This document shows, piece after piece, positions 5,446-33,739 of a DNA stretch of 64,000 bases (the stretch's first letter is position 1; each line of letters begins with the position of its first letter). Source of the DNA: an uncultured Candidatus Saccharibacteria bacterium. GTDB lineage: Bacteria > Patescibacteriota > Minisyncoccia > Minisyncoccales > UBA10102. Under the pieces are notes generated by a model. The model was not told where the DNA came from. It saw only the letters and a list, made by a program, of their open reading frames with translations, and ran no database searches. The stretch is from the NCBI GenBank assembly GCA_964479725.1, contig CAYZNF010000006.1, positions 5,518-69,517 of the forward strand, written 5' to 3'. Both the position numbers and the translations under genes were made by a program.

Positions 5446-5527
5446 GCCGCGGTGGCGGAATTGGCAGACGCGCCAGCCTTAGGAGCTGGTGGGGCAACCC
5501 GTGAGAGTTCGACTCTCTCCCGCGGCA
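5446..5527 (+). tRNA. tRNA-Leu (anticodon UAG)
   Basis: Acceptor GCCGCGG/CCGCGGC, anticodon stem-loop CCAGC-CTTAGGA-GCTGG, long variable arm, T-loop GTTCGACTC. No CCA is encoded. Confidence 0.85.
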
Positions 5528-18000: not shown

Positions 18001-18036
18001 CAGAATTTCCAATGGACGGAGCGTCTTAAGTTTTAG
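12037..18036 (+). CDS. Giant secreted surface protein: N-terminal beta-propeller-like repeat array (about 8-9 blades of about 60 aa) followed by multiple FN3/PAP-N-like beta-sandwich domains
   Basis: Signal-like segment ARKTIALAMASSLVVGAFLFYAPVTQG; the true start is probably GTG at 12160 or ATG at 12220. The motif WRIEKRNITTGAL(E/V)TAFDTDGI occurs 8 times. At least 8 domains of the type TSATITWTTDE.S.S.V.YG....Y.......S..H.V.++GL...T.Y.FRV.S.D..GN are present. Confidence 0.8.
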   Translation: MEQKRRKRRKKSAVDICPREPKISVEKICFYSKPKRQRNSAVRILGLARNKHLARKTIALAMASSLVVGAFLFYAPVTQGAMYTYFQTSWAGNADTNAPFPVHGTNQTGWTKYYSKDAGVTAGTELTLTATANSATQTSSTDFNAGTLSSTSVSGTGDSADVVLELADGDGSLVTAFDSDGVVVSDPSSGNDFIDAMAIDSSYVYLVGRQNSGVWRIEKRNITTGALETAFDTDGIVTSDPTGSNDKAAAVAVDASYIYVAGYQATGGDCSTGSDCWRIEKRNITTGALETAFDTDGIVTSDPTNGSDAITAIVVDSDYIYLVGYQATGGGCSAGGSCWRIEKRNITTGALETAFDTDGIVTSDPTNGSDAITAIVVDSDYIYLVGYQATGGGCSAGGSCWRIEKRNITTGALETAFDTDGIVTSDPTSGSDVITSIAIDSSYIYLGGHNTSTRWRIEKRNITTGALETAFDTDGILDYEPSGFTARLYDIAIDSSFIYLGGYQYDEGGCSSNDCWRIEKRNIATGALVTAFDTDGIIKNNPSTDSDYVTQLSVDADYLYAAGVQGASCAISMSCWRIEKRNITTGALVTSFDTDGVATSDPSDWTDQLWAMALDSSFVYVGGHKANSCSSGGFCWYVEKRTNSVYAATGTITSSAIDTTANIEFTTISWTETLPANTDITIQLAHSTDNSTWSDYLGPDGTTGTSFTTSSGENIASAFDGKRYIKYKATFTTSDTSATSTLSDITIAYTAYSSSATLTSSPYDSSSSGNVLSSIAWTETISAGTTDVKFQLRTSADNTTWSSWAGPNGTDSDYFTNPAGGEAMPSAFTSGSNDRWLQYKVWLTTTDGDTTPTLSDITITYVVNATPDFDATYGNSGVSASQGSDGTVTINFKVRDTDSTSGTVTPTFKYSTDGGSSFNTITSGLSSGATDAKAVETSAYTLHTVTWTPSSQGAIGTSTYEEDFQVQVVVNDGELANAEASQASANFTMDTTPPASGAVDIDSTTNQLTISVTDSSAVAMKISNDSDLSSDGSNDDSGSWIAYGTDANSDGFGDTPLAASVTKSWTLTGSDPETVYIQFKDAKGNTTSAISSTTPRKPSNIIYQDISNTGTSEWKIFIAWGIITAPTPGFANYKVYISTDGSTYSLESTITERNTNYYIDTELSTGTTYYYKVRSEDSNGNISEWSSVVSDNPDGQGGSDLTSPAVTAVTVYDTQTTSATITWTTDELSNSTVGYSTDSSYSTETGVSSMVTSHSVTITGLSANTAYNFRVKSTDPSGNISSWATSSPFTTDAGPAISNVSSTSVTNITATIAWVTDIASDSTVIYSTNSNLSSSQQTNSSSLVASHSVSLSGLTQGTVYYYSVRSTDASSNIANDTNGGSYYTFTTTTDSTGPTISGISATAATNSVTIIWTTNELATSQVEYGATSAYGTTTTQDSSLTIQHAVVISSLFEGTTYNFRVISQDANSNSTTGSNNTFTTSESAELDPTPATAPVISSVTAAVVSETSATITWTTNENSTSQVFYGRTTAYGSQTTQDSTLTVQHSVTLTGLTRADMYYFKVRSLDSSNNAAENDNSGQSYSFTTLQERSGGGAGGGSNTVITVEKIIERVVEKKPALEEMVKIVQQDATDKAQEIRELSTTEFFDSLVKRTQENDKGDVFRHLTAALNEISKEVSPPEIFSVDASPRPTVSTIIWKTDVPANSLVSYGKLAEIQRTPEPVYLMTVGQPEEEVLDHKVVLYDLDPSSEYGFQVYSKPKIGRHGESQHFEFKTRAQLASIDSRQIKNVSERSATFVWDSTDATTSEVVYTPYRQGRLSVQESKTKVQEDRTLRHEIAVNDLEPGTTYSIELRGKNKSGEIISDSIPQFSTTEDVTPPQITQVRTNSAMASNGEQIQTIISWATNEPTTRRVFYQEGVGQSGAAPLSTALEPSFSTSHTVVITSLKPATVYKFWVEAADSKGNKSVSNNYTLFTPQKKQSVVQLIFQNLEQNFQWTERLKF
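12679..13460 (+). repeat. In-frame tandem repeats (186-bp period) inside the giant gene; units 12865..13050 and 13051..13236 are nucleotide-identical
   Basis: Direct comparison shows the two 186-nt units are identical base for base. The first ~60 nt (tggcgtatcgaaaagcggaatatcacaaccggcgctcttgaaactgctttcgataccgatgg) recurs at 12679, 12865, 13051 and 13237, and with one change at 13399. Confidence 0.95.
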
Positions 18037-22396: not shown

Positions 22397-24496
22397 TTAT
22401 TCCAAATGAAGTTTTTCTCGCATCTCATGCACCCTTTGTTTTAAGAGGGGATATCGGGAAAGGGAAATGTTTTCTTCCAAAATTTGCTTTGCCGCTTCTC
22501 TTGCTTCTTCTACGAGCCGCAGGTTTGTGAGCTGTTCCATGGCAAAATCGGGCAAGCCCCATTGCTTTGTGCCCGTAAAGTCGCCAGGGCCGCGTATTGC
22601 AAGATCGTGTTCCGCAAGCTCAAATCCGCTTGCGGCTTTTTGTATTGCCTCAAGCCTTTGTTTTGTTTTTGGAGAATAGGATTCGGTAAACAAAAAGCAG
22701 TATGATTGATGCTCACCCCGTCCTACGCGTCCGCGGAATTGATGGAGCTGGGCCAATCCAAAGCGCTCCGCTCCTTCTATCATCATGACTGCGGCGTTGG
22801 GTATGTCCACACCAACTTCAATAACCGATGTTGATACCAGAATATCGATTTTGCCGAATTTGTATTTTCTCATGACCTCCTCTTTTTCCTTTTGGGGCAT
22901 TTTGCCGTGGAGCATGGCCACTTCCAAATCCGGGAATACCTCTTCTGAAAGTTTTTTGTATTCTTGTTTTACATTTTTTATTTCCCCCTTTGCTTTTTCG
23001 TCTTGCTCTTCGTTTTCTTCGATTCTTGGACAAATGACGAATACCTGCCTGCCCTGGTTTACTTGCTCTTGGATGAATTCGTATGCCTTGTTGCGTCCTT
23101 TGGGAGGAATGATTTTGGTAATAATTTGTTTTCTTCCTTTTGGAAGTTCGGTTATAAGGGATAAGTCAAGATCCCCATAAATCGTCATGGCAAGGGTGCG
23201 GGGTATGGGAGTGGCGGTCATAGACAGAAGATGGGGGATAAGGGTGCTTCCATGGAGAAGCTTTGCCCTTTGTTTTATGCCAAAACGGTGCTGTTCGTCA
23301 ACGATGAGCAAGCCCAAATTGCCGAATTTAACTTTGTCTTGGATTAAAGAATGGGTTCCTATCAGTACCTGTACCTCCCCCCTTTTTATTTTTTCCAGCA
23401 GTTTTGTTCTTGATATTTCAATATAGTCGTTAGGAAGTTTCGGCGAGGTATATCTATCTGTTTTCCCTGTGAGCAGGCCGATGGTAACTCGCAGGGGAGC
23501 CAAAACCTGGCTTATGGTTTTAAAATGCTGCTGGACAAGTATTTCGGTGGGAGCCATAAAAGCGGCTTGATACCCTGCCCTGACCGCGGAATAGGCCGCC
23601 ATTGTTGCTACTACTGTTTTTCCAGAACCGACATCCCCCTGAAGAAGACGGTTCATGGGGCGCGGCTTTTCCATGTCTTTTAAAATATGCCACGCGGCTT
23701 TCTTTTGGCCGTCGGTAAGCTGAAAAGGCAATCTCGAAACAAGATTTTGCATCTGCTCGGAAGAAAAAGAAATAGAAGGAGCTTTGACCGAAGCAAGCTT
23801 TTTCCTTTCCGACAATATGAAAAGCATGATATGGAAAAGTTCTTCAAAAGCAAATCGTTTTTTCGCGATTTGTATTTTTTCTTCCGAGTCGGGGAAATGG
23901 GCTTGAGCCAGTGTTTCTTTTATGGGAGGGAACTGGCGGTTCTTGAGGATGTGTTCGGGCAGGGTTTCGGGAATATCCTCTAATTGAGCCAGTGTTTGTT
24001 TTATAATCGATCGAAGCCATCTTGAACTTACCCCTGCTGTTTCAGGATACACAGGCACAATCCTGCCAAGATGGGTAAGAGGAAGGCCTTGCCTTTCTTT
24101 TTCGTAAGAAGGGTTTGATAGGTAAATTCCTTTCTTGTCTCGTATGATTTTGCCCGCCAAGTAAACAACTTCCCCTTGTTTTAAGGTATCTATTAAATAC
24201 GGCTGGTTAAACCAAAGAACCCGCACAGCTCCTGTTTCATCCTGGAGTATTGCCTGTACAATGGAAAAACGCTTTTTAAATGTCCTTTCTGAAGTTATTT
24301 CCAATAGGGCGCCTTTTAGGCAATACACCTGGTCTTCTTTTATTTGGCTTATTGGAGTTATGATCGAAAAATCCTCGTGGGTTCTGGGAAAACGAAAAAG
24401 AAGATCACGTACCGTGGTGATCCCCATACTCTTCAATCGTTTTTGATATTCCGGCCCCACGCGGGGAACTTTTGAGACTGGGGTAGATAAAGTCAT
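22397..24496 (-). CDS. recG: ATP-dependent DNA helicase RecG
   Basis: Wedge/OB N-terminus, helicase motifs GDVGSGKT, DEQHRFG, SMTATPIPRTL, QLHQFRGRVGRG, and TRG-like GPGDFTGTKQWG. Confidence 0.9.
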   Translation of the reverse strand: MTLSTPVSKVPRVGPEYQKRLKSMGITTVRDLLFRFPRTHEDFSIITPISQIKEDQVYCLKGALLEITSERTFKKRFSIVQAILQDETGAVRVLWFNQPYLIDTLKQGEVVYLAGKIIRDKKGIYLSNPSYEKERQGLPLTHLGRIVPVYPETAGVSSRWLRSIIKQTLAQLEDIPETLPEHILKNRQFPPIKETLAQAHFPDSEEKIQIAKKRFAFEELFHIMLFILSERKKLASVKAPSISFSSEQMQNLVSRLPFQLTDGQKKAAWHILKDMEKPRPMNRLLQGDVGSGKTVVATMAAYSAVRAGYQAAFMAPTEILVQQHFKTISQVLAPLRVTIGLLTGKTDRYTSPKLPNDYIEISRTKLLEKIKRGEVQVLIGTHSLIQDKVKFGNLGLLIVDEQHRFGIKQRAKLLHGSTLIPHLLSMTATPIPRTLAMTIYGDLDLSLITELPKGRKQIITKIIPPKGRNKAYEFIQEQVNQGRQVFVICPRIEENEEQDEKAKGEIKNVKQEYKKLSEEVFPDLEVAMLHGKMPQKEKEEVMRKYKFGKIDILVSTSVIEVGVDIPNAAVMMIEGAERFGLAQLHQFRGRVGRGEHQSYCFLFTESYSPKTKQRLEAIQKAASGFELAEHDLAIRGPGDFTGTKQWGLPDFAMEQLTNLRLVEEAREAAKQILEENISLSRYPLLKQRVHEMREKLHLE

Positions 24497-24503
24497 TGCC
24501 TAG

Positions 24504-25064
24504 TTATTCTACCAGGATTTTAACCTTAGGCCATCTTGTTTTCCAGCGTTTTGTCTTGAGTCTCTGCCGGTAATCTTCTAAATGAGAATATTTGGGGTTT
24601 GGCCGTATTACCATGTCGACTAAATCGTTAATTCCAAAAGGCGCTATGAGCTTAAGGCGATTCGTATCTGAAATAGTAACAGCAACGCATGTGGCGGTTT
24701 CGACCCAGTGGGCGAGAGCATCTTCGGAAGAAGCATACGGGGGGTCATTATTTTTCAAATGCATCCTAGCCTGGTTTTTTATAGACCATGCCGTTTCCGG
24801 TATTTCTCTTCGCAGTTTTTCTTCGTAAGCCTCGTCTGTTTCGGGGTGCAGGGTAGAAGGGTCAAAATATATAAGATCAATGTTGCCCGAGGGAGTGGGT
24901 CTTGAATAGCCATGCAGGACATCCCATACTCTGTTTCGCACAAACCCAGCTCCAATCATCCAATCTGAAAGCTTCAGCCCTTGCGCCGCCTTTAGGATAT
25001 TCATCATCCAGGTGTCATTCCTTATAAGGGTCAAAATCGTTTCTTTGTCCATGTTGCGGTTCAC
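24504..25064 (-). CDS. Nucleotidyltransferase-family protein (DUF925/NTP_transf_6-like)
   Basis: WMIGAGFVRNRVWDVLHGY...DIDLIYFD pattern, typical of small nucleotidyltransferase-fold proteins. Confidence 0.5.
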   Translation of the reverse strand: MNRNMDKETILTLIRNDTWMMNILKAAQGLKLSDWMIGAGFVRNRVWDVLHGYSRPTPSGNIDLIYFDPSTLHPETDEAYEEKLRREIPETAWSIKNQARMHLKNNDPPYASSEDALAHWVETATCVAVTISDTNRLKLIAPFGINDLVDMVIRPNPKYSHLEDYRQRLKTKRWKTRWPKVKILVE

Positions 25065-25103
25065 TGTAGTTCAGGGTCTAGTTTGATTGTAGCAGATTGT
25101 ACC

Positions 25104-25125
25104 AAAAACGCCCTTGCGGGGCGCG
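25104..25125 (-). terminator. Orphan rho-independent terminator (minus strand) at the left edge of the GC-rich island
   Basis: The minus strand reads gcgccccgcaagggcgttttt. No convincing minus-strand gene ends just upstream of it. Confidence 0.5.
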
Positions 25126-25288
25126 AATAGGGTTAATGCGGAGTATTTTCTATACCCCTAGCCAGGGATAGAGCCAAAAGAGCCGATGCATGTTCGTGTT
25201 GTTTTCGTGTGTCATGCTTGAGGCAGTTGGTCAATAGCTCGTGCGTTGACAGACTCAAGAATGTTGAGCTATTATTATAGCCAAAGCC

Positions 25289-25513
25289 ATGAGAATCACT
25301 TACAGTCGATCTGTAGATGCAGCCTATATCTATCTGGTGCCGAGTATTCATGCTGGAGAAGTTGCACATACCTATCCATGCGACCCTGCAACCATTGGTT
25401 ATATGATTAACCTTGACTTCGATGTATCTTGGCGGCTCCTGGGAATTGAAGTGCTCGATGCCAGCAAGCATCTTCCGCAAGACATACTAAAGGGCGCGGA
25501 ACCGATGGAATAG
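25289..25513 (+). CDS. DUF2283-family small protein
   Basis: MRITYSRSVDAAYIYL...INLDFDVSWRLLGIEVLDASKHLP matches the characteristic DUF2283 pattern (MKITYD..DALYI.L ... GIEIL.AS). Confidence 0.65.
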   Translation: MRITYSRSVDAAYIYLVPSIHAGEVAHTYPCDPATIGYMINLDFDVSWRLLGIEVLDASKHLPQDILKGAEPME

Positions 25514-25518
25514 ATGCG

Positions 25519-26064
25519 GTGTTGCAACAACCGACAGGGGCTCAAGCAGTATTAATGATTATGAGCAAACAAATCCGGTTCTACATGACCGAAGGTGACG
25601 AGACTGCTTTCATGGATTTCGCCAGGACAACTGGCGAGGTCTATGTAATACCTGATAATTGGGCCACAGCCGAGATCCCCCTCTTGTCATCCTTGCCTGA
25701 ACCAGAAACCGACATTTTTTGGTGGAGCGTTTCACTATACAACGCGGCGATCTCGAAGAACCTTGTCAGCGTCTATGTTCCTCAACAACACTACTATGTC
25801 CTCGATTCTATGCAGTCTTCGGTGGTTGAATTTGCTCGTTCCATCCAACAAGAAGATATGCTCATAGCCGGGCGCCTATACCTCAATATGGAGAAGCTTG
25901 AACAAGGGCATCTGGTTAAAAAGGAACCCGAACTAGACCGCTGGTACAATGGCTTGGTGCGTTGGCTCCGGCGATACGCCACTCACAGAGAAGGGGTCTG
26001 GGTTGCCCCTGGTGCTGCGCGATGGGCCTCCATGGGAGGTCGTCTCGTCAAGATGCATTTATGA
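25519..26064 (+). CDS. Hypothetical protein (island)
   Basis: GC-rich ORF with a likely start at MSKQIRFYM. No recognised motif. Confidence 0.4.
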   Translation: MLQQPTGAQAVLMIMSKQIRFYMTEGDETAFMDFARTTGEVYVIPDNWATAEIPLLSSLPEPETDIFWWSVSLYNAAISKNLVSVYVPQQHYYVLDSMQSSVVEFARSIQQEDMLIAGRLYLNMEKLEQGHLVKKEPELDRWYNGLVRWLRRYATHREGVWVAPGAARWASMGGRLVKMHL

Positions 26065-26169
26065 GACGAGCGTTGGGCTTATGACACATCGAGACATTAC
26101 AATGATCCAGAAGAGGCTGTGCGTTTCACTGTACAAGTTAAACAAGCCAGATTTTCCAGCGAGTGCACC

Positions 26170-26817
26170 ATGAATACCAAGCACTATCGACTCAGCAACA
26201 ACTCGTTTCATACGCGCGGTTTTGCGTGGGCAACAAGCATGGTTCCCAAGTCCGATGTTTACTATCGCAAGTGTCCTTGCGGTGCGATAGAAACGTATCC
26301 AGTTGGAGCATTCGGTGTCGTCATTGATAGCGGGATGAAGTATCCAGATATCCTTGGGTGCGGAGCCTATCCGATGCTGATCGTAGCGGAACGCGTTGTG
26401 GACATTTGGAGGAGTACAACGCGAGGGGGCTTCCTCATCTATCCAGTGGACATCGCAGAAGTGCGCTCAAAGAGCCTCAAGGCTGTGACGCCACCTCGCT
26501 ACTATCGGGTCGAGGTCGAAGGGCGCTGCGAGATCGATTTGGGGGCGAGTGGTGGCGTACTACTCCATCAATGCGAGTGTCACCACCTGATAACGGAACC
26601 ACCGATGCTCGATCGCTTCATCATGCAACCAGGTTCTTGGGACGGAAGCGACCTATTCCGAGATCATGATCTCTACCCGAGAGTCACGTTCTGCACAGAG
26701 AAAGTGATGGAAATAGCGTCGGAGCACCGGCTCACCAATTTCCGCTTCGAGCCGATGCAGGGCCCCTTCGACTACGCCTCGAAGGGGATTGACTACCTAC
26801 ATGGCAAGAGATCATGA
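26170..26817 (+). CDS. Putative polymorphic-toxin immunity protein (Imm11/DUF1629-like; tentative)
   Basis: ATG at 26170 (MNTKHYRL). C-terminal pattern GSWDGSDLFRDHD...VTFCTEKVMEIASEHRLTNFRFEPM resembles Imm11-type proteins. The context is other immunity genes. Confidence 0.35.
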   Translation: MNTKHYRLSNNSFHTRGFAWATSMVPKSDVYYRKCPCGAIETYPVGAFGVVIDSGMKYPDILGCGAYPMLIVAERVVDIWRSTTRGGFLIYPVDIAEVRSKSLKAVTPPRYYRVEVEGRCEIDLGASGGVLLHQCECHHLITEPPMLDRFIMQPGSWDGSDLFRDHDLYPRVTFCTEKVMEIASEHRLTNFRFEPMQGPFDYASKGIDYLHGKRS

Positions 26818-27072
26818 ACGTGGATGTGCACGAGGTACCCCGTCAACAATGTGAGTCCCACATGCGAAGAGGCAGGCAACGTGTCTGCTGACTGCAATTC
26901 GCCTGCAGCAGTCCAGTGCCAAGGTCTACTTCGACAGGCTCAAGTAGTAACAATGATATGGAAATCATCAACACGACAATCAGAGGAGTCACTGTGTATC
27001 TCACGCTTGACGAGTTGCTTGTCTTGAACAACGCGCTGTAGTATTGGGGGAGAGGAAAAACTATTTTATACC

Positions 27073-27453
27073 ATGTCATTTACATATTCAAACGAATCCA
27101 ATACATTTTCGGGTCCGAGTACGCTAACCGTCCATATCCGGGAGGGGATGGTACGCAAGGCGGAGCTTCTAGAAGAGCTAGCTGCGCAGCTAAGGTTTCC
27201 TTGGTACTTCGGCCAGAACTGGGATGCGCTCGACGAATGTCTCCAAGATTTCCACTGGATGGATTATGACCGAATAGTGCTAGTTCATCATGATTTGCCT
27301 TTGCAAGACCAGGCCACAGAAATGAGGACATATCTAGAGATTCTCCGAGATGCGTGTGATTTCTGGGCTGCGCGCTCCAGACCCGTTTTTGTCGTTGTAT
27401 TTCCCCCTTCATGGAAGCATCTGATCGAGGCTACTTTGAATACGATTGGCTAG
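27073..27453 (+). CDS. Barstar-family ribonuclease inhibitor (orphan immunity protein)
   Basis: ELLEELAAQLRFPWYFGQNWDALDECLQDFHW matches the barstar core (L..FP.YyG.N.DAL.DCL). No barnase-like gene is adjacent. Confidence 0.7.
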   Translation: MSFTYSNESNTFSGPSTLTVHIREGMVRKAELLEELAAQLRFPWYFGQNWDALDECLQDFHWMDYDRIVLVHHDLPLQDQATEMRTYLEILRDACDFWAARSRPVFVVVFPPSWKHLIEATLNTIG

Positions 27454-27753
27454 AACGAAATTAAATGCTAAATAGTTCGTCGCAAAGAAACTTACGTCCT
27501 GGTCAATAATTGACAAGGGTAGTATAAGTATCTACATACATGAGTATAGTCAATGTCATACTCCAAGACGAGTCGGGAAGGACCATTGAACAAATTGGGA
27601 AAAACCCATTGCCTCTCGATGCACTCCTTTCTTACTTATGGGTCAACGTGAATCTGGTGTCAAGCACAAACTGTAAGTTGCTTCAGTCGATCAAGCATCG
27701 TCACTCCAAACGTCAAGAGCGGCCCGCCGCGAAGGTGAACCGCTCTGTTCAGA

Positions 27754-27942
27754 TTAGCCAATCATGTTTCGAAACACGAAACCGAGGCCGAATACGCCCA
27801 GAAAGATGAAAGCCCACCCTATACGAATGAGTAGTCCGCCAACCTCTTGGCGCTCAGATCGTAGCCTTTGGCATTCCGCAATGAGTTCCTCGCGAGTCAT
27901 CGAGTGCAGGTCCTTTAGTCCTTCATTGTTTTGGATATCCAT
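27754..27942 (-). CDS. Small C-terminally membrane-anchored protein, REELIAECQ paralogue 1
   Basis: MDIQNNEGLKDLHSMTREELIAECQRLRSERQEVGGLLIRIGWAFIFLGVFGLGFVF shares the REELIAECQ motif plus TM architecture with 29480..29647. Confidence 0.45.
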   Translation of the reverse strand: MDIQNNEGLKDLHSMTREELIAECQRLRSERQEVGGLLIRIGWAFIFLGVFGLGFVFRNMIG

Positions 27943-28198
27943 CGTACACCTCGGTGGCATCTGGCATTCAGGGTTCTACTTCCCCCATACCATATGTCCG
28001 AGGTGCGGGCAATATATGTCCTGGGGATACATCAGGGACTGTCCAGTCAGGGGTATTTCTCGAATTGCATTGTTCAGATTGCGGCGATCTGGTGGCGCCA
28101 AGAGGCGGTCGAGTAGCGGCTCAAGTATAGAGCGCCTGCCGTTTGCGGTTCAATACCAAGAGGCCACCTCAAGATGCGAGGTGGCCTCTTGCTTTGCA

Positions 28199-28375
28199 GA
28201 TGGTGCGAAGCTTGTGGATAGAAGTAGGGACGGGGGCGGACCGGTCGCGCAGACGTTCACCTACGACGTCCTCAACCGGCTCACGGAGGTCCAGATCCCC
28301 GATGGCACGGCGGGCGCCGGGGTCTTGACCGGCTACGTCTTTGCTGGTACAGAGAGAGTAGTAACGGATGAATAA
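28199..28375 (+). pseudogene. Rhs/YD-repeat fragment
   Basis: QTFTYDVLNRLTEVQIPDGTAG fits the YD-repeat consensus (xxYDxxNRLTxV). The upstream part of the ORF (27764..) has no protein-like character. Confidence 0.4.
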
Positions 28376-28384
28376 TTGACTCCT

Positions 28385-28771
28385 ATGATACCTAAATCAG
28401 TCGCGCTACGTCTCGTATTGTCCGTGTTGGCCCTCGTCGGCGTGTACATTTTAGGATCTGTTGCGTTTCATCATCTACAGGTTCGGAAACTAACAGCACA
28501 TCACGCCACTGAGTTCGCAATATCCATTCAAACTGACATCGAAAAGGGATGCTTGCTCGACCTACCCAGCGTGTTGCGTGTCTTGGAGTACAGCAAGGAT
28601 AAGGCGGTCGTGTTCGGGAGGGCACCAGATGGATCTTCATTCATCATGAGATTCAGTAGACAAAGGCAAGGAGGGTGGTCAATGATAAATAGCGGTGTAT
28701 GCCACTACGAAGTGCTGAAGTCTAATTCTGGCGGTTCCGCAGATAGCCTTATCTTTCCCTGGTTCTACTGA
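28385..28771 (+). CDS. Hypothetical N-terminally anchored protein, positioned like an immunity gene after the Rhs fragment
   Basis: ATG at 28385, TM segment VALRLVLSVLALVGVYILGSV. It starts within 10 nt of the Rhs-fragment stop. Confidence 0.4.
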   Translation: MIPKSVALRLVLSVLALVGVYILGSVAFHHLQVRKLTAHHATEFAISIQTDIEKGCLLDLPSVLRVLEYSKDKAVVFGRAPDGSSFIMRFSRQRQGGWSMINSGVCHYEVLKSNSGGSADSLIFPWFY

Positions 28772-28833
28772 GAATGTCCCGGCGACGTGGGCAAGCATCT
28801 TCGCACTTCACTCTGGATCACTGCGCTCTATAG

Positions 28834-29028
28834 TCGCTCATCCTTGATCAGACGGGTCAGTTGCGAGCGGATGGGGATGAACAAGCACGGGCCATCGAGG
28901 AGACTCTGATCGTAAACAACCCAGGTTTCAAAAACAAAAGGCATAGCATTAGCCCAAAGAAGGCGATCTACGAAGAGGCTGTTCAGTGGGGAAGACAGTA
29001 TCTCAAGAAGCACGGCTACCTGCGGTAA
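28834..29028 (+). pseudogene. C-terminal fragment of a GIY-YIG/URI-type nuclease toxin domain
   Basis: A start-less frame after the TAG at 28831 reads ...EQARAIEETLIVNNPGFKNKRHSISPKKAIYEEAVQWGRQYLKKHGYLR. The E..LI....P...N pattern matches the distal half of GIY-YIG/UvrC-N-type nucleases. Confidence 0.35.
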
Positions 29029-29052
29029 GACCAGCCAAGGAACTTATCTCTT

Positions 29053-29277
29053 ATGAATCTGCGCATCCTCAAGAAGTCAAGGAAAGTCCCGCGTATGGGC
29101 GACATCTTTGCACTCCAAGCAAGGGACAACCAGTATCTATTTGGCCGGGTGATCCGAACTGATGCCCGGTACGGCTCTCTTGATGAGTTGATTCTCATAT
29201 ACATATACCGCACATTCTCACCTGAGAAACACCATCATAGGTTGCGGGAGTTGGAAACTAGGGGTGTTGAGGGCTGA
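29053..29277 (+). pseudogene. Truncated immunity-protein-like ORF (Imm26-like N-terminus)
   Basis: KKSRKVPRMGDIFALQARDNQYLFGRVIRTD resembles the N-terminal GD(v/i)Fa.pl.dg.y.fGrV pattern of immunity proteins. At 74 aa it is probably truncated. It lies 25 nt after the toxin fragment. Confidence 0.35.
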
Positions 29278-29479
29278 TCCCTCCACTTGTGAAGAGGGAC
29301 CGGGATCTTCGGGGGTCATTCCGCAGCGCTGCGGCGTCGGAGCAGGGTGCTTGACAGCGATTGCGGAATACCCCAGAAAGAGGGTAGAACAAACGGTGGG
29401 TCACAAGCCCGGGCTGCGGCGCGGGCTCTGGCCCTAGTCTGCGCCCCGGCTGGTGACCTTCCGATGAGGGAGGTCATAC

Positions 29480-29647
29480 ATGGAATCTCAGAGAAGGCGA
29501 CCCCTGGAGGAGCTCAGCCGAGAGGAATTGATCGCGGAATGCCAGGCCTCGCGCAAACGCACAGCCAAGGCTTGGGTGTACAGCTTGTCTGCGGGAGCAT
29601 GGATTGCAGGCATGACCGGTATCATTCTCACCCTCGTCCTCTGTTAG
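29480..29647 (+). CDS. Small C-terminally membrane-anchored protein, REELIAECQ paralogue 2 (55 aa, below the ORF-track cutoff)
   Basis: Manual translation gives MESQRRRPLEELSREELIAECQASRKRTAKAWVYSLSAGAWIAGMTGIILTLVLC*. Confidence 0.45.
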   Translation: MESQRRRPLEELSREELIAECQASRKRTAKAWVYSLSAGAWIAGMTGIILTLVLC

Positions 29648-29745
29648 ACACCCAAGTATTGCTGGCAAGGAAGGATCTCCAGAGGTAAACTACCACCCTT
29701 AGTTCTACTGAGGGTGGTTTTTCCTAATGAGCAGTTCCTTGGATT

Positions 29746-30124
29746 TTGAGAGGGGCGTCGCAAGCGTTCGTAGCGAGAGTTCTATTCGTGGTCGGCAGTG
29801 CGAGGAGGCTCATAGGTGTTGCAAAGGAGGAGTTCCAGGAGCGCAAGGCCGAACTCGAGCACGAGATCGCGGCGGCGCGCATCTCCCTGAACGAGTGCCG
29901 GATCGACGAGCTCGACGTGGCGGGGCTGCTGGCGTACGCCGCGGCGTTCATGCGGGACCTCCCCCGGCAGTGGTTTGACCTACCCCCCGAGCGGCGGACG
30001 AGGTTCCAACGCCTCGTGTTTCCCGAGGGAATCCCGTACGACCGGGAGGGCGGATTTGGAACCTGCCGTTTGGGGCTTCTGTACGAGCTGAACCGCCGGT
30101 TTGCGGCCGGCGGATCACGCGGGG
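29746..30124 (+). pseudogene. C-terminal remnant of a large serine recombinase-type integrase, ending at tRNA-Arg
   Basis: Coiled-coil-like EEFQERKAELEHEIAAARISLNE, then DLPPERRTRFQRLVFPEGIPYDREGGFGTCRLGLLYELN, reminiscent of recombinase C-terminal tails. There is no catalytic N-terminal domain, and the ORF runs into the tRNA. Confidence 0.4.
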
Positions 30125-30197
30125 TGTGCCCGAGAGGATTTGAACCTCTGGCCTCTTCCTTCGCAGGGAAGCGCTCTATCCACTGAGCTACGGGCAC
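30125..30197 (-). tRNA. tRNA-Arg (anticodon GCG)
   Basis: Reverse complement GTGCCCGTAGCTCAGTGGATAGAGCGCTTCCCTGCGAAGGAAGAGGCCAGAGGTTCAAATCCTCTCGGGCACA; anticodon arm CTTCC-CTGCGAA-GGAAG. Confidence 0.85.
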
Positions 30198-30310
30198 AAT
30201 TAGCCAAAGCAAAAGCTTGGCGTACGCATTGTAGCTTATTTCCTCTAAAAAATAAAGGTTGATTTTTAGGAGATTTAGGGTACAATGAGGCTGGTTTGAC
30301 ATTAGCCCCT

Positions 30311-30397
30311 GGAGAGGTGGCTGAGCGGCTGAAAGCAGCACACTGCTAATGTGTTAAGGGAGCAATCCCTTCGAGGGTTCGAATCCCTCCCTCTCCG
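30311..30397 (+). tRNA. tRNA-Ser (anticodon GCU)
   Basis: Acceptor GGAGAGG/CCTCTCC, anticodon loop CTGCTAA, long variable arm AAGGGAGCAATCCCTT, T-arm GAGGG-TTCGAAT-CCCTC. Confidence 0.85.
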
Positions 30398-30463
30398 CCT
30401 TCGGTCGATGAAGCGACCTTCGGCGGACACAGTCCGCCAGAAGGTTGCGAAGGCGACCTTCGC
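30397..30463 (+). repeat. GC-rich triple-hairpin element, copy 1 (directly after tRNA-Ser GCU)
   Basis: gccttcggtcgatgaagcgaccttcggcggacacagtccgccagaaggttgcgaaggcgaccttcgc. Three stems are visible (cgaag/cttcg, ggcggac/gtccgcc, cgaag/cttcg). It matches 31259..31325 at 61 of 67 positions by direct count. Confidence 0.85.
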
Positions 30464-30509
30464 CCGCAATGTGCTATAAATAACTAAATAACAACTTAAT
30501 TTTTATTCG

Positions 30510-30902
30510 ATGAGCGAAGAAGCTGGGCAACGACCAAGAACGCTTACCAAAACCTATCATATTATTTTCGACGCGATCGGAGTAGATCAATCTTTACTGC
30601 AAAGTGAAGAATTTATCTTTAGTCTTTTGCTTGAAATCCCAAAAAAGATTGATATGAAGATTCTTTCAGGCCCTCATCTTGTTCGAGATTATGATACGGG
30701 GCACGAGGGGCTAAGCGGATTTGCCATTATTGATTTTTCTCATGTCTCAATCCATACCTTTGCTGATAGCCAAGAAGCATACATAGATATTTTTTCCTGC
30801 AGGCCTTTCGACGAAAAAGCCATTCGGAATTATCTTTTCGAGAAGCTAGGCGTTGCGCCAGAACAAGTGCAAACTCATGAAGTAAATTATAGGTGGGGAT
30901 AG
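30510..30902 (+). CDS. S-adenosylmethionine decarboxylase-family (pyruvoyl, SpeH/SpeD class 1-like) proenzyme
   Basis: FAIIDFSHVSIHTFADSQEAYIDIFSCRPFD corresponds to the (E)SH(I/L)SIHTWPE...D(I/V)F(T/S)C core of small bacterial/archaeal AdoMetDC. The residue before the processing Ser is Phe rather than Glu. Confidence 0.65.
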   Translation: MSEEAGQRPRTLTKTYHIIFDAIGVDQSLLQSEEFIFSLLLEIPKKIDMKILSGPHLVRDYDTGHEGLSGFAIIDFSHVSIHTFADSQEAYIDIFSCRPFDEKAIRNYLFEKLGVAPEQVQTHEVNYRWG

Positions 30903-30936
30903 GAAGAGGGGAGCGAAAAAAACAGGTTAGTAAAAC

Positions 30937-30972
30937 GGAGGGGTGTCCGAGCGGTTTAAGGAGACAGTCTTG
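30937..30972 (+). pseudogene. 5' half of a tRNA-Ser-like gene (with duplicated leader), no contiguous 3' half
   Basis: GGAGGGGTGTCCGAGCGGTTTAAGGAGACAGTCTTG parallels the first 36 nt of the intact tRNA-Ser at 31060. About 27 nt of the upstream leader are also similar (30910.. vs 31033..). Similarity ends inside the anticodon loop. Confidence 0.6.
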
Positions 30973-31059
30973 CTCCCTGTTTGTCCAAGAGCAGAGCGAT
31001 TGGCAACAAACAGCAGTCCGCCGCAATGGAGTGGAGGCGGAAAAACTGGTTAGTAAGGC

Positions 31060-31146
31060 GGAGAGGTGGCCGAGTGGTTGAAGGCGACAGTCTTGAAAAC
31101 TGTTATATCCGAAAGGATATCGTGGGTTCGAATCCCACCCTCTCCG
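31060..31146 (+). tRNA. tRNA-Ser (anticodon UGA)
   Basis: Acceptor GGAGAGG/CCTCTCC, anticodon arm ACAGT-CTTGAAA-ACTGT, long variable arm TATATCCGAAAGGATAT, T-arm GTGGG-TTCGAAT-CCCAC. Confidence 0.85.
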
Positions 31147-31230
31147 CCTTGCTAGTGAGTTCTCCGCCTTCTCCCTCGACTTCGCTCTGGATTCGGCGGA
31201 TTGCTCTCGGTTACAAAATCAAAGATTTTG

Positions 31231-31258
31231 ACCGAGAGGGAAGAATCCCACCCCCTCT
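31231..31258 (+). pseudogene. Degenerate tRNA 3'-end fragment (T-arm/acceptor-like)
   Basis: gagagggaagaatcccaccccctctg resembles ..GGGTTCGAATCCC(A/T)CCCTCTCCG. Its CCCCTCT could pair with the GGAGGGG of the 5' fragment at 30937 (G-U at 1:72). Confidence 0.45.
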
Positions 31259-31325
31259 GCCTTCGGTCGCCGAAGCGACCTTCGGCGGACGAAGTCCGCT
31301 AGAGGGTTGCGAAGGCGACCTTCGC
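31259..31325 (+). repeat. GC-rich triple-hairpin element, copy 2
   Basis: gccttcggtcgccgaagcgaccttcggcggacgaagtccgctagagggttgcgaaggcgaccttcgc; see copy 1. Confidence 0.85.
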
Positions 31326-31329
31326 ATAT

Positions 31330-31569
31330 ATGAGTTACACTGTTTACATTCTAAAATGTGCAGACGGAAAACCGTATACTGGCTGCACAGATAATCTGGA
31401 AGAAAGATTATATAGACACAACAGTGGTCATGTTCCGGCAACTGAAAATCGCCGACCCGTTAAACTTATCACGCATGTAGTTTTTATTGATAAATACAAA
31501 GCTTTTGAATTTGAGAAATACTTAAAGTCTGGTTCCGGTCGAGCCTTCTTGAATAAGCATTTAATCTAA
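31330..31569 (+). CDS. Small GIY-YIG nuclease-superfamily protein (UPF0213-like, 79 aa)
   Basis: YTVYILKCADGKPYTGCTDNLEERLYRHNSG...FEKYLKSGSGRAFL, i.e. GIY/YIG-type N-terminus, conserved R..H and E motifs. Confidence 0.75.
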   Translation: MSYTVYILKCADGKPYTGCTDNLEERLYRHNSGHVPATENRRPVKLITHVVFIDKYKAFEFEKYLKSGSGRAFLNKHLI

Positions 31570-31573
31570 AATT

Positions 31574-32125
31574 ATGTTTGACCTTTTTAAGAAAAAACAG
31601 CCAACACGATCTGAAGATGAATTGCGCCTAAAAGCCGCCGGAGTTAATTTTGCTATCTTTACAATTTCAAACGAAATCAATAAGTCCTTGCAAAAGGAAG
31701 TCAAGGAATTAAATAAATTAAAACAAGAAGAAATAAATCATATATTTTTTGTGGTGTCTTATGTAGCATTATTTCAAGCTCAAAAATTTTTCTGGGAGAA
31801 TTTTATTCGTGATGAGGAAAACGCAAGAATCTTTGAATCTCATTTATTTCGTATGTTTGAAAAAACATCGGGCGTTGATCCAAAATCACACATACAAGAT
31901 TTAGTTGAGTATGTCCAAAAGGGGGAGCCCTCGAGAGAAGTTCAATATATTGGCAGTAAAATATGCAAAATACTGGGAAAGGAAGATGCATTTTTGATGC
32001 TGGAAATCTCAAAAGTATTTGCCTCATTTCTGAAACATGGTTTTTTCGAATCAATGAAGCGAGCTTGGGAATTGCCTAACGAAACATTGAAAGAGATGGC
32101 TGATAAATTGGAAAATTCGGATTAG
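31574..32125 (+). CDS. Hypothetical, predicted all-helical protein
   Basis: Clean 183-aa ORF, 4 nt after the GIY-YIG stop. No recognised motif. Confidence 0.45.
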   Translation: MFDLFKKKQPTRSEDELRLKAAGVNFAIFTISNEINKSLQKEVKELNKLKQEEINHIFFVVSYVALFQAQKFFWENFIRDEENARIFESHLFRMFEKTSGVDPKSHIQDLVEYVQKGEPSREVQYIGSKICKILGKEDAFLMLEISKVFASFLKHGFFESMKRAWELPNETLKEMADKLENSD

Positions 32126-32256
32126 AAAGAATTTGCCGTCAAACCGAACGAAACTCGGAGTTCCGCTGAAAGCGGAACGAAAAACTTGAAATCGTCCAAT
32201 CCAAAGGGGTCGTTTCCGCAGACGGGCGGAAGGGGATTTTTTTGGGGGGAATTCCG

Positions 32257-32338
32257 CCCGCCGACCTGCCCGCCGAAGTTAGAACGCAGGCGGGGCCCAG
32301 CCAGTTCCGTTCGGATATTTTCAGACAGACACCGCCAA
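32257..32338 (+). repeat. 82-bp perfect direct repeat, left copy
   Basis: cccgccgacctgcccgccgaagttagaacgcaggcggggcccagccagttccgttcggatattttcagacagacaccgccaa is identical to 33658..33739 by direct comparison. Confidence 0.95.
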
Positions 32339-32422
32339 CCGCCGCTTAATCGAGTTGATGGAAGGGAAAATCAGCCAAGTTTTAAGCGAGGTATAGTTGT
32401 GTATAACTTCTTTACATTGCTA

Positions 32423-32451
32423 TTGACAAGAAATTCTACATCGCTTACAAT
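32423..32451 (+). promoter_or_regulatory. Consensus sigma70-type promoter upstream of the toxin-antitoxin pair
   Basis: TTGACA-17 nt-TACAAT (ttgacaagaaattctacatcgcttacaat), about 78 nt upstream of ATG 32529. Confidence 0.6.
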
Positions 32452-32528
32452 GGAGGTGTGAGTATTATTAATTCAGAAAATATCCTTATGTCTGAAGATA
32501 AACATAACGCAATATTTTCAAAATAACT

Positions 32529-33311
32529 ATGCTTGCTAAATTTATTCAAGAACAACGCAAAAAGCGCAACCTAACGCAAGAATTTTTGGCGTCCGCGCTT
32601 AAAATTTCTCGCCCGACTTATATGCAAATTGAGCAGGGTGAGCGAGATTTAACTATTACCGAAGCCAAGAAATTGGCGGAAGTTTTTGATATTCCATTTG
32701 AAAATTTTTTGGAGGGAAAAGAAGACATGAAAATCGTTGTAAAGATTGAGGGTAAAAAGAAACAAAAACAAGAAGCCGAGGGCGAAATTCGCATCAGTAT
32801 CCCGCAAGAGAAAGCGGAAAAGTTTGAGCAGACGCTTTTGTATATCCTCGCAAAAATCGGCGGCAAGCCGAACATCGGGCAAACCGTGCTCTATAAGTTA
32901 TTGTATTTTATTGATTTTGATTATTACGAAAAATTTGAGGAACAACTGATTGGCGCAAAATACATTAAAAATCATTATGGCCCCACCCCAGTGATGTTTG
33001 CCAAGTTTATTGAACGTCTGGAAAAAAAGGGTAGGGTTGAGAAGATAAAAAGTAAGTTTTACAAGCACGAGCAGACCAAGTACCTCGTCAATCCGAACGA
33101 GGCGCTTAACTTATCTGCGCTTTCGGCGCAGGAGCTTGCTCATATTGATTGGGAAATTGACCGTCTTGGCGATTTAACCGCCACGCAGATTTCCGCGTTA
33201 TCTCATCTTGATACGCCATGGATTATAGCAAAAGACAGAGAGCCGCTGGAATACGAGCATGTATTCTATCGACCAGAAGAAACCTCTGTAAGAGAATATG
33301 AACCGCTTTGA
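32529..33311 (+). CDS. Antitoxin: XRE-family HTH fused to a Panacea (DUF4065/SocA-like) domain
   Basis: HTH: IQEQRKKRNLTQEFLASALKISRPTYMQIEQGERDLTITEAKKLAEVF. Panacea-like: GGKPNIGQTVLYKLLYFIDFDYYEKFEEQLIGAKYIKNHYGPTP. Confidence 0.75.
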   Translation: MLAKFIQEQRKKRNLTQEFLASALKISRPTYMQIEQGERDLTITEAKKLAEVFDIPFENFLEGKEDMKIVVKIEGKKKQKQEAEGEIRISIPQEKAEKFEQTLLYILAKIGGKPNIGQTVLYKLLYFIDFDYYEKFEEQLIGAKYIKNHYGPTPVMFAKFIERLEKKGRVEKIKSKFYKHEQTKYLVNPNEALNLSALSAQELAHIDWEIDRLGDLTATQISALSHLDTPWIIAKDREPLEYEHVFYRPEETSVREYEPL

Positions 33312-33654
33312 TGCTCTCGCAGAATTTGAAAAAGAATTCAAGCGACTTTCTAAAAAATATAAAACACTAGATGATGACTTTGAAAAGTTTAAGAAACTTT
33401 TACTTGTCGCCCCAACTGGCGTTGGGAAAAATTTTGTCATCATCCATTCAACTGAAACTATCAATATAGTGAAAGCGCGTATGGCGTGTCGCGCTCTCCG
33501 TGATCGTTCTTTGCGGATTATTTACGCATACCACGTCGCCGCTTCAAAAGTTGAATTTATTGAGATATACTTCAAAGGCGAAAAAGAGAACGAAGATCGA
33601 GAGCGAATCAAGGAGTATTTGAAAAATCAAAACCCCGCCCGCCACCCAATTTGA
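33298..33654 (+). CDS. Toxin candidate, RelE/ParE-superfamily-like
   Basis: 14-nt overlap with the antitoxin. KARMACRALRDRSLRIIYAYHVAASKVEFIEIYFKGEKENEDRERI fits the RelE/ParE-like ...R(I/V)IY......i.f+.iy.K... pattern. Confidence 0.55.
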   Translation: MNRFDALAEFEKEFKRLSKKYKTLDDDFEKFKKLLLVAPTGVGKNFVIIHSTETINIVKARMACRALRDRSLRIIYAYHVAASKVEFIEIYFKGEKENEDRERIKEYLKNQNPARHPI

Positions 33655-33657
33655 GGT

Positions 33658-33739
33658 CCCGCCGACCTGCCCGCCGAAGTTAGAACGCAGGCGGGGCCCA
33701 GCCAGTTCCGTTCGGATATTTTCAGACAGACACCGCCAA
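33658..33739 (+). repeat. 82-bp perfect direct repeat, right copy
   Basis: Identical to 32257..32338. It starts 4 nt after the toxin stop codon. Confidence 0.95.

Follow-up and report, generated by a model that had tools for sequence, protein, structure and literature searches.

A probable acquired island of decaying toxin and immunity genes at a tRNA-Arg gene in a bacterium of the Candidate Phyla Radiation

We analysed a stretch of 64,000 nucleotides (nt) from an uncultured bacterium of the Candidate Phyla Radiation (CPR, or Patescibacteria), comprising positions 5,518 to 69,517 of contig CAYZNF010000006.1 (assembly GCA_964479725.1) and referred to below as the window. A segment of it, inserted between the recG gene and a tRNA-Arg(gcg) gene, very probably constitutes an acquired and now decaying island derived from toxin-immunity systems. 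A fuller reading, toward which we lean by a small measure, is that of an acquired heterogeneous polyimmunity island, part of which protects the cell to this day. An earlier note on this DNA, made from the nucleotide sequence, had drawn attention to the same region (25126-30124) as an island of orphan immunity genes and toxin fragments.

Insertion site and boundaries of the island

The whole insert extends from the start codon of recG to the 3' end of the tRNA-Arg(gcg) gene (24497..30124). The tRNA gene lies on the reverse strand (30125-30197) with its 3' end toward the island, and position 30124, at which the earlier note had ended its segment, is the base adjoining this 3' end. The start proposed there (25126) has to be revised, since the inserted DNA begins 630 nt further left, at recG (24497).

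The extent of the insert became apparent from a comparison with 56 metagenome contigs, whose RecG proteins are 47-76% identical to that of the window. The gap between the two flanking genes was measured in the 13 contigs with sufficient upstream DNA and a tRNA-Arg(gcg) gene, in all of which this gene lies on the recG strand, immediately upstream of recG. In 11 of the 13 the gap is short (0, 0, 0, 0, 6, 7, 12, 12, 21, 108 and 197 nt), compared with 5,625 nt (24497-30121) in the window. Neither the island genes nor the NTP_transf_6 gene described below were found in any of the 56 related contigs; the right-hand neighbours of the island, i.e. tRNA-Ser, an S-adenosylmethionine (SAM) decarboxylase gene and a small GIY-YIG gene, recur in them. 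Two relatives carry other inserts between tRNA-Arg and recG: (i) 1,497 nt in L075 (8504-10000), with a Resolvase N-terminal fragment adjoining the tRNA and a Na/Ca exchanger gene, and (ii) 989 nt in L061 (9012-10000), encoding a DUF6804 membrane protein. The tRNA-Arg/recG site is therefore an insertion hotspot in Wildermuthbacteria-like contigs. Both of these inserts start directly after a tRNA ending in CCA, and their first open reading frames (ORFs) share the motif EK(Y/H)RLEPYF(D/N)FGG(R/K)KIF.

The guanine plus cytosine (GC) content of positions 25126-30124 is 52.3%, against 45.1% in the remaining part of the window. All of the 5-kb intervals with the highest GC content among the 64 kb start within 25001-26501 (the highest start at 25251-25751, and the top one lies 3.6 standard deviations above the mean), the tetranucleotide distance from the host profile peaks at 25001-30000, and beyond tRNA-Arg the GC content drops back to 42-45%. 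The shift in base composition reported by the earlier note, together with its reversion at the tRNA gene, was thus confirmed; its left edge proved gradual rather than abrupt, with values of 46-47% until about 25750, and the genome, at 45% GC, is not strongly AT-leaning, contrary to what had been assumed. GC content at third codon positions (GC3) amounts to 0.459 +/- 0.029 in the host ORFs. In the island it is 0.44 for the DUF2283 gene, 0.51 for the barstar gene, 0.62 for both the Imm11-like gene and the nuclease fragment, 0.745 for the YD-repeat fragment and 0.80 for the recombinase fragment. The compositional shift is genuine, yet such a spread (0.44-0.80) makes the island a mosaic, and not the product of the single GC-richer donor that had been postulated.

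The left part of the insert contains a nucleotidyltransferase gene of the NTP_transf_6 family (24504..25064, reverse strand; PF06042, 209 bits), which is missing between tRNA-Arg and recG in the relatives. Because of its host-like composition (GC3 0.46), this gene is probably an older resident or arrival than the rest of the insert. The left edge of the GC-rich part carries a terminator-like GC hairpin with a T-run (25108..25124, reverse strand), followed on the forward strand by a near-consensus match to a sigma-70-type promoter (25246..25275; TTGACA, 18 nt, TATTAT; 11 of 12 positions). This predicted promoter, a pattern match only, ends 14 nt 5' of the DUF2283 start codon. Also a pattern match only is a strong terminator-like hairpin (29692..29718, forward strand; 12-bp stem and T-run), located directly 5' of the recombinase fragment.

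This fragment, at the tRNA-proximal end of the island, comprises the C-terminal ~118 codons of a large serine recombinase gene (29818..30183, forward strand). In a word-indexed search the corresponding stop-to-stop ORF (29731-30183) matched seven short proteins, and a profile built from those seven retrieved 1,471 relatives in an exhaustive search, many of them 504-569 amino acids (aa) long and matching in their C-terminal parts. Five such full-length relatives, of 520-550 aa, contain a Resolvase domain plus Recombinase and/or Zn_ribbon_recom domains, and are therefore large serine recombinases. Residues 30-147 of the window ORF align to positions 399-516 of 521 in a hidden Markov model (HMM) of 24 full-length members (128 bits, E 6e-39). 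HMM searches of all frames of 25000-30250 detected neither a catalytic Resolvase domain nor any other recombinase piece. Over its final 59 nt the recombinase ORF overlaps the 3' part of tRNA-Arg in antisense. The fragment had no tblastn match in plasmids, nor had its homologue P0132 in phages, and the context of another homologue (P0129) was uninformative.

Twenty-five full-length relatives of the recombinase piece (P0148-P0282; at least 450 aa each) were inspected at their C-termini, and 15 of them end in a tail such as GFEPTTIRLRVECSTN or GLEPATPSVQVRCSTR, which reads as the antisense translation of a tRNA T-arm. Such tails suggest a clade of large serine recombinases in which the 3' end of the gene regularly falls within a tRNA gene; if so, the target would be an unusual one for a serine integrase.

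The compositional shift, the empty site in 11 of the 13 relatives and the remnant of a large serine recombinase gene next to the tRNA uphold the horizontal acquisition proposed earlier. The island resembles tRNA-linked genomic islands in its insertion at a tRNA 3' end, its deviant composition, its tRNA-proximal recombinase gene and the empty site in relatives; it differs from them in that the recombinase is of the serine and not of the tyrosine type, and flanking direct repeats are undetectable. Alignments of the tRNA 3' end within the island revealed no direct repeat at the distal boundary (scores of 20-27, against a shuffle mean of 22.5 and maximum of 32), and an 18-nt match at 28182-28199, considered as an att site, was rejected as chance-level.

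It could be argued that such a segment is an assembly or binning chimera, i.e. a Chloroflexota-like fragment misjoined to a CPR contig: the GC content jumps, the nearest relatives of one gene come from Chloroflexota metagenome-assembled genomes (MAGs), one of them labelled NC_groundwater, and the contig of the closest sibling begins inside the island, at 28464. We rejected this explanation, which is extremely improbable, since both junctions have been assembled independently. The left junction is bridged by Logan contig L009 (run SRR12113422), identical (100%) to 23879-25325 of the window, and the right one by a second MAG, whose contig JACPIB010000039.1 (GCA_016188315.1) corresponds to 28464-33739 with 99.0-99.9% identity; the possibility of a chimeric assembly raised by the earlier note was addressed in this way at either end. 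Inside the island, Logan contigs from two runs cover 27005-27962 (L001, SRR12113422) and 28693-29949 (L003, SRR12113420). Moreover, the island shows no nucleotide similarity to the Chloroflexota loci (at the protein level similarity amounts to 50-63% and concerns one gene only), and the recombinase ORF runs directly into the host-side tRNA.

To the right of tRNA-Arg, a stretch of tRNA-Ser debris (30311-31325) comprises an 83-nt repeat (30381-30463 and 31243-31325; 89% identity), which starts within the 3' end of tRNA-Ser(gct), as well as a degenerate tRNA-Ser 5' half (30906-30981). The SAM decarboxylase gene lies between two tRNA-Ser genes in the window and outside both of them in relative L074. 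This debris and the difference in gene order suggest further rearrangement beside the island.

Immunity genes and remnants of toxin cassettes

An intact gene assigned to an immunity family (26170..26817, forward strand) encodes a protein of 215 aa, which homologues, gene context and predicted fold place in the MXAN_0049 / SitI6 double-CXXCG / Imm11 superfamily. The protein has 116 homologues of ~215-220 aa, devoid of a Pfam domain, and those with a named source belong to Chloroflexi, Anaerolineae and Caldilineaceae. A genome scan for the family identified 14 loci: nine in Chloroflexota, two in Planctomycetes, two in one Chthonomonadales MAG and one in an Altiarchaeota MAG. Weak matches, below the curated level, were given by 10 of 34 family members to Imm11 (PF07791; best E 9e-4) and by 4 of 34 to the SitI6 double-CXXCG family (TIGR02264; best E 8.8e-5). 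The window protein, which has all of the invariant residues of the family, matches neither profile at E <= 1. The earlier designation of an "Imm11-like" ORF therefore finds no backing in a Pfam match of the gene's own; it is sustained, for the gene at 26170-26817, by the weak Imm11/SitI6 matches of family members and by the MXAN_0049 fold.

The AlphaFold2 (AF2) model of the protein, computed with the family alignment, has a mean predicted local distance difference test score (pLDDT) of 94.4 and a predicted TM-score (pTM) of 0.89. A Foldseek search with this model gave a single significant match in the PDB, 6a4c (MXAN_0049; E 3.1e-6, probability 1.00, TM-score 0.59, 211 columns), with no other match at E < 1; the sequence identity between the two proteins is 15%. 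The structure of MXAN_0049 in this entry was solved in solution, and experiments have shown the protein to be the immunity partner of the AHH nuclease MXAN_0050 (PMC12077131, PMC6627406).

Gene context was compared in 15 loci, i.e. the 14 found in the genome scan plus L004. Directly upstream of the family gene, a substantial ORF with an AHH motif is present in nine of the 15, only a stub of 45-72 aa in three, and none in the remaining three. The upstream ORFs share a conserved C-terminal domain of ~110 aa, with the pattern (A/V)HH.LPW.F.DWFAG.GRGL.VND..FGRWV...HQ.W, which scores below every Pfam model, AHH included; Pfam detects RHS repeats in one of these toxins (51.9 bits) and PT-HINT in one (67.6 bits). 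The partners listed for Imm11 are Tox-AHH, Tox-HNH and Tox-SHH (PMC3482391). From sequence and model, the 215-aa protein is most likely an immunity protein, whose cognate toxin would be an AHH-type DNase.

Of a gene for such a toxin, the window would retain the last 12 codons (26138..26173, forward strand; LNKPDFPASAP followed by a stop), which overlap the start of the immunity gene as ATGA. The toxin of L004 ends in LNDPNFPASNP, with the same ATGA overlap. Among the 127,930 six-frame positions of the window, that of the stub ranks first, with a score of 44 (next best 34). An HMM built from 11 AHH-motif toxins detected no additional toxin remnant upstream of the immunity gene, and for this reason a weak frame-0 similarity at 25920-26054 (score 35) was dropped as a candidate. 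The window protein thus equals MXAN_0049 in length and fold, and its homologues likewise follow (A/V)HH-motif toxins. However, the MXAN_0050/MXAN_0049 pair is linked to PAAR and a type VI secretion system in Myxococcus xanthus; in the window no delivery system is in view, and only 12 toxin codons are left. In tblastx and tblastn comparisons of the island with all fetched loci, only the Imm11-like gene and, weakly, the DUF2283 gene were found in common.

One family member, located in a Candidatus Altiarchaeota MAG (JAUWTD010000031.1; L013, 5959-6714; 54% identity), is a lone copy without an upstream toxin. It adjoins a small ORF and a 164-aa ORF, which resemble, by eye only, a UPF0175/PIN-type pair. 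Either a lineage outside the bacteria possesses an orphan immunity gene as well, or the contig was binned wrongly.

Further downstream, an intact gene (27073..27453, forward strand) encodes a 126-aa RNase inhibitor of the barstar family (PF01337; 76.6 bits against a cut-off of 23.4, profile positions 7-94 of 96). The protein matches barstar in the PDB (E 1.3e-3), and the barnase-binding helix is conserved: in the alignment to 1ay7_B/1bta, PWYFGQNWDALDECL stands opposite PEYYGENLDALWDCL, Tyr29 and Asp35 are retained, and Asp39 is replaced by Glu. These three we take to be residues of the acidic barnase-binding helix of Bacillus amyloliquefaciens barstar. No Pfam signal of barnase was obtained in the two of three upstream frames that were scanned, and the island contains no RNase ORF. 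The barstar gene is an orphan with no barnase gene beside it, exactly as described in the earlier note.

The third gene of this group, for a DUF2283 protein of 74 aa (25289..25513, forward strand), had also been named correctly: its Pfam match reaches 33.9 bits against a cut-off of 23 and covers the complete domain (positions 1-49 of 49). In other genomes DUF2283 proteins are antitoxin-like partners of DUF4258, and a DUF4258-DUF2283 pair is present in L004; no DUF4258 partner gene exists at the DUF2283 locus of the window.

The other recognizable pieces are truncated. A fragment of ~46 codons ending in a stop (28235..28375, forward strand) probably derives from an Rhs/YD-repeat core. Its match to RHS_repeat (PF05593) over 28235-28372 remains below the cut-off (18.7 bits, E 0.0023; cut-off 22) and TIGR01643 is not matched; in a BLASTP search of four sequences it matched the Pfam-positive RHS region of the toxin of L014 (Chloroflexia) with E 9e-6. 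It contains the only YD-like motif of the window. The fragment seems to be a mid-core Rhs piece and not a toxin tip, and such an origin would not by itself make the ORF that follows an immunity gene. This ORF of 131 aa (28376..28771, forward strand) starts 0 nt (TTG 28376) or 9 nt (ATG 28385) past the stop of the YD fragment and has an N-terminal hydrophobic, predicted transmembrane, helix, which agrees with the membrane-anchored ORF within 10 nt seen earlier. No relatives of it were found in Pfam, NCBIfam, PADLOC, PHROGs, the PDB or plasmids.

The second truncated cassette begins with the 3' end, ~46 codons and the stop, of a gene for a putative GIY-YIG (Tox-URI1-like) toxin domain (28879..29028, forward strand; homology over 28879-29019). 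The piece matches the C-terminal 46 residues of a 121-aa Janthinobacterium protein, an unannotated stretch of Pseudoalteromonas DNA and a Streptococcus protein named "RHS repeat-associated core" (tblastn against plasmids, E 4e-9 to 1e-2; pairwise, 4e-8 to 6e-14). The published motifs of Tox-URI1 are Y, YxG, R, [RK]xxE and N (PMC3482391). All of the GIY, YIG, Arg, RxxE and Asn motifs are present in the full-length homologues, which match the GIY-YIG profile below the cut-off (E 5.8e-4 and 0.1). The fragment keeps RxxE (RAIE) and the Asn (of NKRHSISPK), lacks GIY, YIG and the Arg, and gave no Pfam match of its own.

The partner of Tox-URI1 is Imm26 (PMC3482391), and in Streptococcus, Janthinobacterium and Pseudoalteromonas an Imm26 gene follows the toxin after 1-6 nt. 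In the window a truncated gene of this family (PF15428; 29053..29277, forward strand) begins 24 nt past the nuclease piece. It matches profile positions 3-46 of 107 (25.2 bits against a cut-off of 23.3) and encodes residues 1-54 of ~155 only: the homology (29053-29211) is followed by an unrelated tail and a stop, and the rest of the domain is absent from every frame. Read from its sequence, this Imm26 copy is a pseudogene. The start-less nuclease C-terminus and the truncated Imm26 ORF behind it, both pointed out in the earlier note, were thus recovered, as the last 46 residues of a putative GIY-YIG-type domain and with the spacing given above. The closest intact URI-toxin/Imm26 pair (L081, Janthinobacterium lividum plasmid NZ_CP139977.1, 307999-316136) lies among small hypothetical genes; this gene run is located directly downstream of a xerC tyrosine recombinase gene and resembles a recombinase-associated immunity array.

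Two further parts of the earlier interpretation, polymorphic-toxin origin and decay, gained support from these comparisons. The origin is indicated by the Imm11-like homologues, which follow AHH-motif Rhs/PT-HINT toxins, and by the nuclease/Imm26 pair, conserved in Streptococcus, Janthinobacterium and Pseudoalteromonas; the decay is evident from a 12-codon toxin stub, the YD fragment, half a toxin, one third of Imm26 and one fifth of a recombinase. The arrangement resembles the orphan toxin-tip/immunity modules of Rhs loci and contact-dependent inhibition (CDI) loci, in which a displaced 3' toxin piece is followed by its cognate immunity gene (here the AHH stub, and the URI C-terminus with Imm26), and the spacing in the window (1-24 nt) matches that of intact pairs. 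Unlike such modules, however, it has no parent Rhs or CdiA gene upstream, Imm26 is truncated, and the conserved pre-toxin region, on which recombination depends, is missing from the stubs.

Alternatively, the segment could be left over from, or a satellite of, a toxin arsenal of the organism itself, providing self-immunity or spare cassettes for AHH or barnase toxins encoded elsewhere. Orphan modules behind active Rhs/CDI loci typically consist of a displaced toxin tip and an immunity gene after it (PMC3482391), and a YD-repeat fragment is present. Nevertheless, we consider this origin improbable and rejected an own toxin locus: no Rhs, PT-HINT, LXG or other toxin gene and no delivery gene was found in the six ORFs that were scanned, out of 21 of at least 330 aa in the window, the YD-like motif occurs only once, stubs of 12 and 46 codons are too short for swapping in, and it is a recombinase remnant and a tRNA, not a toxin gene, that delimit the locus.

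The remaining ORFs of the island could not be assigned to any family. The largest, of 181 aa (25519..26064, forward strand; 159 aa from ATG 25585), hit only itself among 5.8 billion proteins and had no match in Pfam, NCBIfam, PADLOC, the PDB or plasmids; its AF2 single-sequence model has a pLDDT of 41. It was considered as the toxin upstream of the immunity gene and rejected, being unrelated to the toxin ORFs that precede the family gene elsewhere. An ORF of 89 aa (27540..27809, forward strand), without a family match, overlaps an opposite-strand ORF of 68 aa (27754..27960), which was also gene-called in the Logan assembly. The latter is a paralogue of a 55-aa ORF (29480..29647, forward strand): both encode a C-terminal hydrophobic helix and the motif REELIAECQ, form an inverted repeat in the DNA, align as proteins with a score of 56 (at most 46 after shuffling), have no family match, and flank the block of dead cassettes in inverted orientation. 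PADLOC and PHROGs returned nothing meaningful for any ORF of the island.

Origin and present function of the island

We propose that 5.6 kb of foreign DNA entered at the tRNA-Arg 3'-end hotspot, at least in part by means of a tRNA-targeting large serine recombinase element; it is the recombinase remnant and the hotspot that point to this route. Integration would have been followed by deletion and erosion, and with four fifths of the recombinase gene gone the element would now be immobile. Its cargo may have been a patchwork of polymorphic-toxin cassettes with different histories: (i) the AHH immunity gene with 12 codons of its toxin, (ii) barstar, (iii) the mid-core Rhs fragment and (iv) the 3' end of the GIY-YIG toxin with the 5' end of its Imm26 gene. 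Several of these cassettes would be dead. The whole genes left, those for DUF2283, the MXAN_0049-like immunity protein and barstar, share one direction behind the near-consensus promoter match and, judged by their reading frames, are probably intact. We infer that they are expressed and protect the cell: the MXAN_0049-like protein and barstar could act in the cytoplasm as stoichiometric blocks of incoming AHH DNases and barnase-type RNases, respectively, delivered by neighbours. The retained immunity repertoire that the earlier note considered possible would comprise these two genes.

Several observations weigh against a functional polyimmunity island acquired in this manner. The heavy decay of the neighbouring cassettes argues for weak selection on the locus. 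The 215-aa protein itself matches neither the Imm11 nor the SitI6 profile, the distal repeat of the tRNA end is missing, and the relative-less ORFs of 181 and 131 aa may not be genes. Both the NTP_transf_6 and the DUF2283 genes are host-like in composition, and the insertion was therefore not one single event. As the sibling contig starts at 28464, the left half of the island rests on fewer independent data, with a single independent confirmation in addition to short Logan contigs. Finally, a cognate toxin may be encoded elsewhere in the genome, the scan having covered six large ORFs of the 64-kb window.

A rival explanation is neutral debris, i.e. DNA acquired as described, of which nothing is functional and whose intact-looking ORFs have merely not yet mutated. 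Five recognizable pieces (the AHH stub and the YD, URI, Imm26 and recombinase fragments) are truncated, the closest sibling assembly breaks inside the island, and its genes are absent from all 56 related contigs. We rate this explanation as distinctly less likely than protection by part of the island, though as a serious competitor. The barstar and 215-aa genes are full length, the 215-aa protein keeps all of the invariant residues of its family and is modelled with a pLDDT of 94, and both immunity genes lie downstream of the promoter match at 11 of 12 positions. Reduced CPR genomes are, besides, generally believed to be quick to shed useless DNA. On balance we therefore retain, by a small measure, the polyimmunity island with a part still at work.

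Other features of the window lie outside the island. A perfect 82-nt direct repeat (32257-32338 and 33658-33739) bounds a 1.3-kb segment, which contains a gene with a helix-turn-helix (HTH)/SocA_Panacea domain (32529-33311) and an overlapping ORF of 118 aa (33298-33654); this is possibly a recently inserted or duplicated toxin-antitoxin cassette. The end of the sibling contig coincides with the second copy of this repeat. The same sibling assembly, 99.9% identical, lacks 64 nt (31356-31419) inside the small GIY-YIG gene (31330-31569; Pfam, 53.4 bits), which is a strain-level indel. An ORF of 1999 aa (12037-18036) contains fibronectin type III (Fn3) and purple-acid-phosphatase-N-like repeats and probably encodes a giant surface protein of the CPR cell.

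Relation to known systems and significance

Gut Bacteroidales and several Proteobacteria are established carriers of orphan immunity islands. Ross et al. in 2019 reportedly described acquired interbacterial defence (AID) islands in Bacteroidales, including a recombinase-associated form (rAID) with a tyrosine recombinase. CPR bacteria have very small genomes and live attached to or among other cells, and in the literature searched we found no description of an orphan immunity island in this group. The kind of locus is thus already known, and the host lineage is new as far as the literature searched extends.

The pairings Imm11/Tox-AHH, Imm26/Tox-URI1 and barstar/Tox-Barnase have been published, and Imm11 and Imm26 are typical of heterogeneous polyimmunity loci (PMC3482391). 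The island shares with such loci (Zhang, Aravind et al. 2012, PMC3482391) and with AID/rAID islands its unrelated immunity genes without functional toxins, the toxin remnants mixed in, the linkage to a site-specific recombinase and the horizontal acquisition of the segment. It differs from these systems in its CPR host, in the dead large serine recombinase at a tRNA gene, and in that only two or three genes look alive.

The locus is a clean example of the tRNA-Arg/recG insertion hotspot, and the linking of an unannotated family of ~215 aa without a Pfam domain to the proven MXAN_0049 immunity fold is a small useful addition. Should the genes prove to be silent debris, the gain is a modest one.

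According to a 2026 preprint (PMC13622651), Saccharibacteria epibionts are targeted by the Esx secretion of their actinobacterial hosts, and toxin pressure on epibionts is therefore a live question. Retained antidotes would reveal the attacks faced by these small-genome organisms. A more specific proposal, which we regard as unlikely but worth stating, is that a CPR episymbiont keeps working immunity against the contact-delivered AHH DNase and barnase-type RNase of its bacterial hosts or neighbours. If this were true, Chloroflexota, which include the nearest relatives of the AHH-immunity gene (one of them in an NC_groundwater MAG), would come into view as host or habitual neighbour, immunity-gene content would offer a way to infer the partners of uncultured CPR bacteria, and the island would be the first case of defence against interbacterial antagonism in the CPR.

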